Below are positions 58,741-62,716 of a stretch of 64,000 nucleotides of DNA, one piece after another. The stretch lies in the NCBI GenBank assembly GCA_965261735.1, contig OZ253470.1, forward strand, positions 4,320,001 to 4,384,000. The letters run 5' to 3'. The notes beneath the pieces were generated by a model. That model did no database searches. It worked only from the letters and a program-made list of their open reading frames with translations, and was not told the origin of the DNA. The translations under genes were made by a program, and so were the position numbers. Within the stretch, counting starts at the first letter, position 1; each line of letters opens with the position of its first letter. The stretch is from Alphaproteobacteria bacterium (GTDB taxonomy: Bacteria > Pseudomonadota > Alphaproteobacteria > SHVV01).

Positions 58741-59706
58741 GAGTTGTTGGAGCCTCTGGTAGCTGTGGGTAGGCGGCTTGCCGTAGCGACCGCCGAGAGT
58801 CTGGCGTAGGCAAGCCGGCTATCCACAGCGGAGGCCATCGCGGTTCCGGTTTAGGATCACCTTCCAGCGGCGCGGGATCACCTCCAGCGTCTCGGTCACG
58901 TCCTCGCCGATCTTCGACAGCTTCTCCGATCCGCAGCACGCGCAGGCAGTCGGCGCCGGCACCACCACGCGCTCGCGCGGCAGGTGCGCCGGGAACGGCT
59001 TGCGGGCCAGCTTGCGGCGCGCAAACCCCCTGACCTGCGTGGTCCCCGCCGCCGCCAGCTCGTCCTCGGTCGCGCTCGCCTTAAGCTCGTCGAGCTGCAG
59101 CTCCAGCTGGTCGAGAAGCCGCTGCTTGCGCTCCGAGCGCCAGCCGTACATCTCGCGCCTGAGCTTCACGATCGTCAGCTTCAGGAAGGCGATCTCCGCC
59201 TCGGCGCCGGACACCTTCGCCTCGGCGTTAGCAGCCCGCGCCTCGGCCGCCGCGAGGGCCGTCTTCAGGGCTGAGATGTTGGACCCGCCGGTCATCGGCG
59301 GGATCGAATCACATCGACCGATTCGGCGCTACAACATTCCTCCCGCCCGCGTCGTTCCCCCGCCGATCAGCCCGCGCGAGACGGTCGCCAGGTCCGAACC
59401 GGGTTCCGCCAATCGATCCCCTCGAGCAGGTAGCCCAGCTGCGCCGCGCTGATCGACACCGCACCCCCCGGCGTCGTCGGCCACTGGAACCGGCCGCGCT
59501 CAAGCCGCTTGGCGTAGAGCGAGATCCCCACCCCGTCATGCCACAGGCATTTTACGAGGTCGCCTCGACGACCGCGGAAGATATACAAATCCCCCGCATG
59601 CGGGTCGCGCCTGAGATCCTCCTGGGTAACTACCCAGGTCTGATTGGCCCGAGCGTTTGTATGTGAGGGATCGTGGGGGTCCGGGCTGGTAGCGGTGCCG
59701 GTGTTC

Positions 59707-61245
59707 TCAGAGGCGCAGTTGGGGGATTAGTTGCATCGGATCGGGATGCACCAGGGTCTGGAGGACGTTCCAGCCTTGCTTTCGGGCGGTGGCGATGACG
59801 GCACGCATTCTGGCGAAGTTGCAGGCACCCCTCTCGGAGCGGAAGCCACCGGAGATCTTCTGGCGCAGCTTGGCCATTCGGAGGTCACGTTCGGCCTCAT
59901 TGTTCGTAAACGGCGTGCGCGGGTCGGTGAGGAATCGCAGGCATCCCTCCTTGTGCTTGCGGAGGCGGAGCGCGAGGTTATGACCGATGCGGCGTTTCTT
60001 TCGTCCGCGCTTGCCGGTCCGGAGCGGCGGCTGCGCCTCGTGGAAGGCGATGGCGTGGTCGAGGATGCGGGCCCAGGCCCGCGAGATCCGGGCCACCAGG
60101 GAGGCGGGCGCGTCGCGGCCGTTCTCACGGGAGAAGCGGGTAGCCCTGTGTGCGCGCTCAAGGAGGCGGTGCATGCTCTTTGCCCAGTCTTCCTTCTCGA
60201 TGTCGATCAGGGCCTGGAGTTCGCGCAGGTGATGGGCGTTGCAGGCGCCGTGGCGCACGCCCTTGAGGGTGAAGTAGGCGGCGTAATCGTCATGGATGAG
60301 GATGCCTTCGAGGTCCTTTTCGACATCGCCGCGTCCCGCGCCGATGCGCAGGACGGTCAGGAATGGGGTGCACAGCACGTGGAGCCAGCGGGTACGGGCG
60401 GCGATCCGCAGGCCGGTTTCGTCGAGGTGCTTGACCGGGACCGCTGTGCGGATCACGTCTGCGACATGGGCGAGGAAGGGCTCGAAGCGCCTGGCGGTTC
60501 GCCGGCCCATGGCGGTGATCGTGGCTGTGGAGATGGACACTGCGAAGAGGTCGCTCATGAGTTCGGCCAAGCGCTTCTCGGGAACGAACTGGGCGTACAG
60601 CAGGTAGCTCACCCAGGCGGTGATGCGTGGCCCGTACTGGACCGGGGCGGTCACGCCGTCCGCGAAGACGGCTCCTGTCACGGTGGCGCAGGCGCCGCAG
60701 AGGCAGCGATGGGCGCGGTGTTCGGTGACCTCCAGGGGGCGTGGCTCGGGCACATCGAAGACCTGTCGACAGACGGGCGCGCGGTGACGGTCGGCGTCCG
60801 ACAGCGGTGCGCCGCAGCCCGAACAGGCGGAGGGGTCATGATCCACAACATGGTCCGGGCTCTCGGTCCGCGCCAGCGTCGTTCCCTTGTGGCCCGGCTG
60901 GCCGCCGCTTGGCCTGCCGGACTTGCCGCGCTGGCTTCGGGTGCGCCTCTGGGTTCCGCTCTTCTTGCGCAGGCCGTCGCTGGCGGGCGGCTTGCTGCTG
61001 GTGGTGCTGTCAAGCGCCGCGCTCCGCTCGAGCTCGGCGATGCGGTCCCGCAGGGTCGCGTTCTCCCGCTCGAGCGCGGCATTCTCCCGGACGAGCGCCG
61101 TGGCCAGGCGCAACAGCCCCTGGCCCCATTCCCCGAAGGCCTTGACGACTGTGGTTGCGAAGGATGAGGGGTCAAGAAGATCTTGCAGGCACGCGAAGGC
61201 CTCGTCATGGGCGGCGAGGTCCTCGTGCCAGCGCGACAGCGTCAC
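59707..61245 (-). CDS. IS66-family transposase TnpC
   Basis: DSTTSSKPPASD, GGQPGHKG, HLDETG, CNAHHLREL, FTNNEAERDLR. Confidence 0.93.
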   Translation of the reverse strand: MTLSRWHEDLAAHDEAFACLQDLLDPSSFATTVVKAFGEWGQGLLRLATALVRENAALERENATLRDRIAELERSAALDSTTSSKPPASDGLRKKSGTQRRTRSQRGKSGRPSGGQPGHKGTTLARTESPDHVVDHDPSACSGCGAPLSDADRHRAPVCRQVFDVPEPRPLEVTEHRAHRCLCGACATVTGAVFADGVTAPVQYGPRITAWVSYLLYAQFVPEKRLAELMSDLFAVSISTATITAMGRRTARRFEPFLAHVADVIRTAVPVKHLDETGLRIAARTRWLHVLCTPFLTVLRIGAGRGDVEKDLEGILIHDDYAAYFTLKGVRHGACNAHHLRELQALIDIEKEDWAKSMHRLLERAHRATRFSRENGRDAPASLVARISRAWARILDHAIAFHEAQPPLRTGKRGRKKRRIGHNLALRLRKHKEGCLRFLTDPRTPFTNNEAERDLRMAKLRQKISGGFRSERGACNFARMRAVIATARKQGWNVLQTLVHPDPMQLIPQLRL

Positions 61246-61907
61246 GGGTCCTCGGCATCGACGGCCATCATGGCGGCCAGCACCGCGAGGCGTTCGCCCG
61301 CCGGCAAGGCCTTGTAACGCCGGCCCCAGTTGGCCGCCTTACGCTTGATGCGCTGGCGGTCGGTGAAGTTCCGGCCTGCGTAGCTCGCCCAATGCACCCG
61401 GTCGGGCGCGAAGTTGAACCACACGACCTCGGTCCGCACCTGGGCCTGGGTCGTCACCTGCAGCGCCAGACTGCGCCAGCCCGCCAGCATCTCGTCATAG
61501 AGCGCCGAGGGATGGCCCGAGACCATCACCTGGCAGGGCAGATCCTTGAGCAGGTCCAGGAGCGCGACATGGTCGACCTCCTCGAAGTCGAAGCGATAGC
61601 GCCGTGCCGAACGGCGGGTCGCGTGCAGATAGGGGGGATCGCTGTAGACCAGCTCCGGGCCCAGAAACGGGAACGAGGCCAAAAAGGCATGGGCACAGCC
61701 ATGCACCAACTCGACCGGGTAGTCACAGGCAAAGGCCTCGAGCGCCTGCGCATCGCGGTCGATGCCGATCGAGCGCACGCCCGTTGGCTTGCGCTTCATC
61801 AGCGCACCGCCCCCCAGGTGGCTCTCGATGTAAACGCTGTGCGGCGGCATCAGCGCAATCAGCGCCTGGCACAGACCGCTCGTCGCCTTCGACCCGAAAT
61901 ATCCCAC
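61242..61907 (-). CDS. Dam/D12-class N6-adenine DNA methyltransferase (short form)
   Basis: YFGSK, YIESHLGGGA (motif I), VYSDPPY, VMVSG, EVVWFNF; GTGA overlap with tnpC. Confidence 0.88.
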   Translation of the reverse strand: MGYFGSKATSGLCQALIALMPPHSVYIESHLGGGALMKRKPTGVRSIGIDRDAQALEAFACDYPVELVHGCAHAFLASFPFLGPELVYSDPPYLHATRRSARRYRFDFEEVDHVALLDLLKDLPCQVMVSGHPSALYDEMLAGWRSLALQVTTQAQVRTEVVWFNFAPDRVHWASYAGRNFTDRQRIKRKAANWGRRYKALPAGERLAVLAAMMAVDAEDP

Positions 61908-62716
61908 GCGCCGCTCCCGTCACACGAGAGCGCAACCCATAGACGCCCGATTCTATGGAGTCAAGAGACGATCAACGACGCGGCGGCGGAAACCCGGCCC
62001 CGGCGACCACCTACATCATCCTCTCGCGGTCAGGAGCGGGGTACCTGGGTAGTTACCCTCCTGGACCTGAAGCGCCAGGGTGTTCATGCCGCGCCGCATG
62101 TCGGTCACGCCACTCGCCAGCCAGACACGAGCACCTCCCGGAACCGGGATCATCGGCGTGCCAGAACCGCCAGCACCCGCGCCAGCGCCGAACCGTCCAC
62201 CTCCCGGTCGACGATCACCCGCGAGCCATCGGCCAGCGCGATCTCCATCCGTCCCGCCGCCGGCGCATCCCCCGGGGCAGCATCCAACGGTGGCGGCTCC
62301 ACAACCACCGGCACCAAGCCGCCGGCCCCGCCAGCCTGCTCGCGAAACCGGCGCCGCCAGTTGAACACCAGGTCGGCGTTCACGTCGTTGCGCCGCGCCA
62401 CAACCGACACAGAAACCCCGGGCTGGTAGCTCTACGCTACGATCCGGCGCTTCTCGGCATCGCTCCAGCGACGACGAAGGGCACCCGGGCCTTCCCGCCC
62501 GGACCCCGGATTCTCCACTGCTTCCGACATTTGCGATCGTGTCCACTTAGACCTTGGTGGACACCAAACAGGTGTCCACTCCCGATCGCACAACCTCGCC
62601 TGATTACACTAATCCGAGAAGGCGGCCCACTCCGGAGGCTTACCCGGAAGCAAACGCATGTCACAAATCGTGGAGCCGCACTTCCTAATGGTCGGCGCCG
62701 CCTGACCATCAATTGT

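Follow-up and report, generated by a model that had tools for sequence, protein, structure and literature searches.

In an insertion sequence (IS) of the IS66 family from an Alphaproteobacteria bacterium, a gene for a methylase-like protein lies directly upstream of the transposase gene, tnpC. Judging from its sequence and those of its relatives, this protein is probably an autoregulator of the two genes, which we consider more likely than a role as a general DNA methylase. The element occupies positions 59626-62056 of a 64,000-nucleotide stretch of DNA (assembly GCA_965261735.1, contig OZ253470.1, positions 4,320,001 to 4,384,000), called the window below and used for all coordinates. Our conclusion draws on the homology of the protein to Upf31, a plasmid protein with reported autorepressor activity, on a palindrome conserved in the putative promoter of the element and its relatives, and on the linkage of the gene to transposase genes in many lineages.

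Two coupled genes in a mobile element

The unit is 2431 bp long and is bounded by perfect 14-bp inverted repeats, GTAACTACCCAGGT at the tnpC-side end (59626-59639, plus strand) and its exact reverse complement at the methylase-side end (62043-62056, minus strand). Outside these lies an 8-bp target-site duplication, CCTCCTGG, with its left copy at 59618-59625 and its right copy at 62057-62064. Only two open reading frames (ORFs) are found inside the unit, both on the minus strand. The first encodes the methylase-like protein of 221 amino acids (61242-61907; ...VYSDPPYL..., with DPPY at residues 90-93). The second is tnpC (59707-61245), which starts with GTG and encodes an IS66-family DDE transposase of 512 amino acids, as seen from matches to PF03050 (DDE_Tnp_IS66; E 2.1e-41) and NF033517 (IS66 transposase; 285.7 bits for a cut-off of 180) and, in its N-terminal part, to DUF6444. 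The stop codon of the methylase-like gene and the start codon of tnpC overlap in the sequence GTGA (61242-61245). Translation of tnpC thus appears coupled to that of the methylase-like gene, and a promoter upstream of the latter most likely drives both. This anatomy had been described from the letters of the window alone (hereafter the sequence-only reading) and is confirmed in every part. So is the proposal that the element moved as one piece. The genome, a single 5.03 Mb contig, holds three complete copies at 100% identity with different 8-bp duplications (CCTCCTGG, GATAATTC and ACTCGAAC), and a DNA contig from a sponge metagenome joins 59617 directly to 62057, representing the unoccupied target. 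The window unit is therefore an active IS66-family insertion sequence. A fourth copy in the genome is incomplete, lacking the final 56 bp at the methylase-side end.

The methylase-like protein belongs to the Upf31 family

A Rossmann core like that of Dam, containing motif I (HLGGGA, residues 30-35) and DPPY, is followed in the 221-residue protein by a C-terminal domain of two helices (residues 181-218). Its similarity to known methylases is remote: a Pfam search returned nothing at E <= 0.01, with the threshold of PF02086 not reached, and the match to TIGR00571 (dam) was weak (25.3 bits, where the cut-off is 114.85). A profile built from 46 family members nonetheless matched DpnM (1.4e-8) and Escherichia coli Dam (2.4e-5), each in two pieces. 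Between these pieces, about 110 residues that form the recognition domain of DpnM and Dam have no counterpart, residues 62-81 of the IS protein corresponding to residues 73-184 of DpnM. An AlphaFold2 model (predicted local distance difference test score, pLDDT, 89.4; C-terminal helices at 181-200 and 203-218) gave DpnM and Dam as the first-ranked Foldseek matches, with a template modelling score of about 0.5. The protein thus shares the core, motif I and DPPY with these D12-class enzymes, which are its best structural and profile matches, and differs from them in lacking the recognition domain, in falling below curated thresholds and in its additional C-terminal helical domain. Among the 46 homologs, down to 38% identity, G5, H23, G32 and D90-P91-P92 are invariant.

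The family is large, with 5608 clusters (at 50% identity) matching at E <= 0.001 and 530 at 1e-30, and 3790 clusters matching at E <= 0.001 in an environmental sequence search. Homologs of 43-55% identity, annotated as 'DNA adenine methylase', are found on plasmids, 134 of 191 of which were typed as conjugative, and include upf31.0 of IncP-1 plasmids; further homologs occur on P2-like Salmonella phages. The protein also matches a PADLOC Type II methyltransferase model (PDLC03244; 9.2e-22) and a PHROG 'DNA methyltransferase' family. Identity to the Upf31 homolog of the IncP-1 plasmid pW2 is 43% over residues 1-218, the C-terminal domain included (E 3e-63).

The only experimentally studied family member is Upf31 of the IncP-1β plasmid pBP136, a 25.4 kDa protein (bioRxiv 10.1101/2024.02.05.579024). 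In that preprint, Upf31 gave no GATC methylation, and SMRT (single-molecule real-time) sequencing of E. coli ER2796, a methylase-free strain, with the expression vector gave no kinetic signal. According to the same source, Upf31 repressed its own 68-bp promoter, lowering XylE activity from 4.76 to 0.09, its C-terminal domain was required, and CAGCATCG, repeated in inverted orientation, forms the likely operator. The IS protein resembles Upf31 (of pBP136, R751 and pW2) in its motifs, in full-length similarity and in a promoter layout of TTGACA with a 5-N10-5 palindrome. It differs in being the first gene product of a transposase operon, with CATAG half-sites where Upf31 has CATCG, whereas upf31 is a stand-alone gene of the plasmid backbone whose product is proposed to act on KorB and repeated CAGCATCG sites (bioRxiv 10.1101/2024.02.05.579024). 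The reduced recognition domain suggested by the sequence-only reading is borne out by the missing Dam recognition domain; the relaxed specificity that it derived from this finds no support in Upf31, for which the preprint reports no detectable methylation. The IS protein itself may or may not transfer methyl groups.

A palindrome is conserved in the putative promoter of the element

Upstream of the methylase-like gene, on the minus strand, a palindrome CATAG-N10-CTATG (61938-61957) is located between a putative -35 box, TTGACT (61959-61964), the positional homolog of TTGACA in the upf31 promoter, and a putative -10 box, TATGGG (61936-61941; TATGCT in most relatives), placed by its position only. 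We consider this palindrome a candidate operator. The pattern CATAG-N10-CTATG has one match in the window, compared with 0.01 expected. Of the 154 loci with enough upstream sequence, 145 have the motif TTGAC-N-(C/T)ATAG-N10-CTAT(G/A) approximately 58 bp ahead of the start codon, always with a spacer of 10 nucleotides, and the other nine carry near-variants or interrupted copies. Across 50 distinct promoter sequences TTGAC, ATAG and CTAT are invariant and the 10 intervening bases vary. The 5 Mb genome holds seven such sites, four of them in the IS copies. The other three (G000:C1:1264474, 3507165 and 4918441; L190-L192) all fall inside long ORFs and are probably due to chance, since a control pattern gave one site.

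The palindrome is also found outside insertion sequences. Four of seven non-IS loci encoding homologs carry a 5-N10-5 palindrome, with CATAG arms in L186 and L193 and CATCG arms in L188 and L195. The promoter on pW2 reads TTGACAGCATCG-N10-CGATGCTG and that of a homolog on a Xanthomonas plasmid ACATAG-N10-CTATGCTG. The CATCG arm sits within the CAGCATCG repeat that the preprint gives as the likely operator (bioRxiv 10.1101/2024.02.05.579024). Upstream of the gene, two plasmid loci (L186:3800-4000 and L188:1300-1500) have at least two half-site repeats with GCTGCAGG after them, resembling the clustered IncP-1β repeats that the same preprint mentions.

A leader hairpin (61905-61941, minus strand) reaches from the -10 box as far as the ribosome-binding site, with a minimum free energy of -18.1 kcal/mol and a z-score of -2.78. 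Its stem is 10-15 bp long, and z was <= -2.0 in 11 of 12 lineages folded singly, with arm sequences that differ by lineage. The hairpin escaped RNAalifold, which found the CATAG/CTATG pairing alone in the promoter-leader alignment, since the lineages are shifted there by one column. As the 5' arm of the hairpin begins in the -10 box, this arm would be missing from transcripts that the element's own promoter produces.

Combined, these features suggest how the element might be controlled. The methylase-like protein would be made first and tnpC translated by coupling. The protein would then bind, probably in dimeric form, to the palindrome and shut the shared promoter, repressing its own gene and that of the transposase. 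Entry into a cell without the protein would allow a burst of transposase, followed by shut-off. In IS10 and IS50, transcripts that read into the element from outside are silenced by a hairpin, and by analogy the leader hairpin here may block translation of such transcripts. A predicted complex of two copies of the 221-residue protein scored 0.23 (mark 0.42), which is not evidence either way.

The gene is linked to different transposases

To assess how general the arrangement is, we used species-representative genomes, in which 462 stretches encode a relative of the methylase-like protein; the counts below refer to the best 80. In 78 of these 80 genome loci tnpC lies directly downstream of the methylase-like gene, the exceptions being L049 and L080, with 2-2.5 kb between the two. 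Metagenome contigs were scanned with a 71%-identical homolog as query, giving another 80 loci. Fifty of them have a gene for an IS66 TnpC-like protein downstream, about 25-34% identical to that of the window, 20 have less than 500 bp of room downstream, and 10 lack a TnpC match by tblastn. Five of these 10 carry an ORF with DUF4277, and the two such ORFs that are complete encode IS1634-family transposases (NF033559; 8e-74 and 2e-73). Two others (L160 and L151) show weak IS66-type matches, and no adjoining transposase gene was assigned in L097, L113 and L134. A transposase gene thus follows in at least 55 of the 60 metagenome loci with enough room. In L097 (1792-5307) the methylase-like gene has no adjoining IS66 tnpC; downstream of it, at a distance of 1.6 kb, an IS91-family transposase (Y2_Tnp and Zn_Tnp_IS91) is encoded, and a fragment of an IS66 TnpC lies upstream.

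The methylase-like gene is better conserved than the transposases that it accompanies, and its position and orientation, directly 5' of the transposase gene, are constant in all lineages seen. In 1337 of 2346 pairs of elements the methylase-like proteins are 65-91% identical where the transposases are less than 35% identical. Between lineages, the ratio of nonsynonymous to synonymous substitution rates (dN/dS) is 0.16-0.30 for the methylase-like gene and 0.19-0.28 for tnpC. The sequence-only reading had proposed a search for the pair in other genomes, and had named one-off capture, or an inactive protein free of purifying selection, as the outcome that would speak against it. The pair recurs as counted above, the gene is kept under purifying selection across many lineages, and a one-off capture is thereby ruled out.

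Trees of the two proteins point to exchange. In the tree of the methylase-like protein two well-supported clades correspond to two TnpC clusters. Nested in one of these clades are the genes linked to IS1634 and two further types of TnpC. On the TnpC tree, which was built by a quick method and has several rows on long branches, presence of the gene requires four changes, at least three of them forced by well-supported branches. Five IS1634-family elements of approximately 3.2 kb carry the gene (L118:16-3192, L122, L128, L153 and L166), and a relic IS66-type end, GTAACTACTCACCCC, lies upstream of it inside elements of this type. L118, L122 and L128 have the same left boundary (L118:16), and L128 has an additional 380-bp insert between the methylase-like gene and the transposase gene. 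Two lineages of the IS1634 type, with only 65-70% DNA identity between their transposase genes, have both kept the methylase-like gene. Since the IS1634-type unit encloses both the relic IS66-type end and the gene, the module moves between transposase lineages and is afterwards kept. One genome locus (L022, 4001-6204) is a chimera, with a methylase-like gene about one residue from that of the window (proportion of nonsynonymous differences, pN, 0.002; of synonymous differences, pS, 0) and a TnpC of 85.7% identity, which suggests recombination between element lineages.

A module added to a TnpC-only element

Within the unit neither tnpA nor tnpB was found, matches to TnpA and TnpB being confined to the outer, interrupted IS66 described below. 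This fits the group of TnpC-only elements, presumably the one named after ISBst12, and not the canonical IS66 group. Among the nearest relatives of TnpC (43-57% identity), the 1.3-1.5 kb upstream are free of a methylase-like gene. The ends of four of these gene-less relatives were examined; the elements are 1553-1775 bp long and tnpC is their only gene. The ends of two, L173 (1583 bp) and L045 (1639 bp), are GTAACTGCCCAGGT(A), almost those of the window element, with GTAACT(A/G)CCCAGGT common to all three. Those of L174 and L175 have GTAACT alone in common with the window element and then differ.

The sequence-only reading held that the methylase takes the place of TnpA and TnpB. This replacement within a canonical IS66 element is ruled out, as the closest relatives are TnpC-only, two of the four having near-identical ends, and the gene was added instead. 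By these comparisons, the window element is a TnpC-only (ISBst12-like) IS66 element with an acquired module of approximately 0.8 kb between one end and tnpC. The module consists of the putative promoter with the palindrome in its spacer, the leader hairpin and the Upf31-family gene. The element shares DDE_Tnp_IS66 and DUF6444, the 8-bp target duplication and the lack of both TnpA and TnpB with the TnpC-only group, whose members are approximately 1.6 kb long, and differs from them in its extra module, translationally coupled to tnpC.

Autoregulator, epigenetic switch or passenger

Several observations weigh against the interpretation of the methylase-like protein as an autoregulator. A single preprint is the source of the Upf31 experiments (bioRxiv 10.1101/2024.02.05.579024), and these concern a plasmid protein; its homolog on pW2 has 43% identity to the window protein. 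The invariance of the S-adenosylmethionine (SAM)-binding and DPPY motifs throughout the family is not accounted for by a pure repressor. A distance of 15 bp between half-site centres is unusual for a dimeric repressor. The palindrome is absent from three of the seven non-IS homolog loci examined (L187, L189 and L194). A sigma-70 scan of 59500-62200 gave no promoter, the sequence TTGACT-17-TATGGG of the window not passing. The palindrome arms adjoin the -35 box and share bases with the -10 box, so that conservation of the promoter may account for some of their invariance. RNA libraries make up eight of the 20 sequencing runs that contain the element, and contigs from three of them span 59626-62056, some crossing the gene junction; these are contigs only, and they show neither transcription nor its strand or start. 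Missing cover of the flanks in the RNA runs is not evidence.

The invariant motifs lead to a possible, although distinctly less probable, explanation, that of an epigenetic switch. Here the protein would be a highly site-specific N6-adenine methyltransferase that targets the half-sites (CATAG) of its own operator. Full methylation or binding would turn the promoter off, and passage of the replication fork would leave a hemimethylated site and produce a pulse of transposase. This would be akin to the established control of IS10 and IS50 by Dam, with the methylase carried by the element. In those elements, and in IS903, a methylation-type protein acts at the transposase promoter and a fold-back hairpin acts against read-in transcription, much as might occur here; the difference is that the methylase there belongs to the host and acts at GATC sites, whereas the protein here is borne by the element and would act at a palindrome. 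The catalytic and SAM motifs are invariant and under purifying selection, and CATAG and CATCG agree in having adenine as the second base of the half-site. The negative SMRT result for Upf31 may also say little here, as the strain sequenced is described as carrying the expression vector only (bioRxiv 10.1101/2024.02.05.579024), and an absent bipartite target of 20 bp would go unseen. With the plasmid's repeats lacking from that strain, we infer that methylation of operator adenines would be compatible with the result. Arguing against such a switch, no target-recognition domain is recognisable in the IS protein. A broader version appears similarly doubtful. In it, a Dam-like enzyme devoid of a recognition domain both binds and methylates a bipartite palindrome in the promoter common to it and the transposase gene, defining a widespread class of insertion sequences whose transposition is licensed by hemimethylation or by a naive cell, independently of a host methylase, and whose module is exchanged among IS66 clades and IS1634.

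Another explanation, which follows the sequence-only reading, makes the protein an orphan adenine methyltransferase whose specificity is short or relaxed. It would methylate the host and co-resident mobile DNA, thereby protecting the element or its vectors from restriction or altering the methylome of the host. The Dam-like fold and motifs, the PADLOC and PHROG matches and the homologs on plasmids and P2-like phages, where orphan methylases are common, speak in its favour. So does the precedent of Hia5, Hin1523 and Nma1821, Dam-related enzymes on mobile elements with divergent recognition regions, of which Hia5 and Hin1523 show that such enzymes can be non-specific (PMC3299994). According to that paper, however, these are proteins of about 281 residues with proven activity on most adenines that keep the region of residues ~80-170, Hia5 retaining about 90 residues at the position of the Dam recognition domain (PMC3299994). 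This region is absent from the IS-protein family, and the family member studied, Upf31, was inactive in the methylation tests, with neither GATC methylation nor a genome-wide kinetic signal reported in methylase-free E. coli (bioRxiv 10.1101/2024.02.05.579024). A strict promoter palindrome and tight coupling to the transposase gene are not expected of a simple protective passenger, and self-protection would be indirect because insertion sequences do not pass from cell to cell on their own. By analogy with the plasmid protein, a general methylase of relaxed specificity is the explanation most directly contradicted by the Upf31 data. An autorepressor without detectable methylation, together with the similar palindrome of the IS, thus makes this role improbable. 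Least probable of all, in our view, is a hitch-hiking gene with no part in transposition, trapped by nested insertions or deletions and persisting through a benefit to the host or because the elements are young. The relic IS66-type end in the IS1634-type elements is what nested insertion predicts, the TnpC tree calls for at least three gains or losses of the gene, and close TnpC relatives manage without it. Yet the gene holds a constant place and orientation upstream of the transposase gene, its dN/dS is as low as that of tnpC, it was retained in both IS1634-type lineages, and the start/stop overlap makes translation of tnpC depend on it. We therefore retain autoregulation as the preferred interpretation.

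Distribution of the element and its target site

The 80 genome loci are mostly in metagenome-assembled genomes (MAGs) of Alphaproteobacteria, with some in MAGs labelled Dehalococcoidia, Longimicrobiales and Tectimicrobiota. Both element ends are present in 62 of them, 2.3-2.6 kb apart and at 62 distinct sites, and in 46 of these 62 the 8-bp duplication is perfect. The duplicated target sequences are rich in A+T (64%), the loci themselves (L006-L085) being 64% G+C. Some MAGs hold at least a dozen copies. Copies that are nearly identical are found in MAGs whose labels name four different phyla, which indicates either horizontal spread or binning error. Distribution of the element is patchy: in a phylum-wide sample only three of 401 genomes matched the methylase-like protein at E <= 1e-20, two of them at 43% identity.

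The window element is inserted in the tnpB gene of another IS66 element, as the sequence-only reading had proposed. In the TnpB_IS66 profile PF05717, the N-terminal part of this tnpB (62058-62153, minus strand) corresponds to positions 2-25 and its C-terminal part (59367-59624, minus strand) to positions 24-99 (at 59370-59624; E 5.9e-26). The two flanks are thus halves of one tnpB, split exactly at the duplication. Further parts of the outer IS66 are a TnpA-like ORF of 86 amino acids (62150-62410), beyond the flank of the unit, and, on the opposite side, an N-terminal TnpC fragment (58819-59295). The outer element is decayed: its TnpC ORF ends after 158 amino acids, with the LZ and zinc-finger parts only, and the TnpA-like region (within 62058-62593) is split into the 86-residue ORF and a stop codon further upstream.

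Implications

An insertion sequence is usually viewed as a transposase gene and its ends. A literature search found no paper on the arrangement of a methylase-like gene with a transposase gene, which may already be catalogued in ISfinder, TnPedia or REBASE. In this element and its relatives, a gene that has a methyltransferase fold and its own conserved promoter palindrome is kept upstream of transposases that are unrelated to each other, and is better conserved than those transposases. On the interpretation we favour, this is an insertion sequence with an accessory regulator, and the module is widespread and exchanged between IS families. Labels such as 'DNA adenine methylase' on mobile elements should accordingly be treated with caution, as they are not evidence of a change in the methylome or of anti-restriction. 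The two-gene system is well suited to asking whether such a protein is a pure DNA binder or a site-specific methylase. If our interpretation is correct, the Upf31 family would gain a second and very common setting, the control of a transposase operon.

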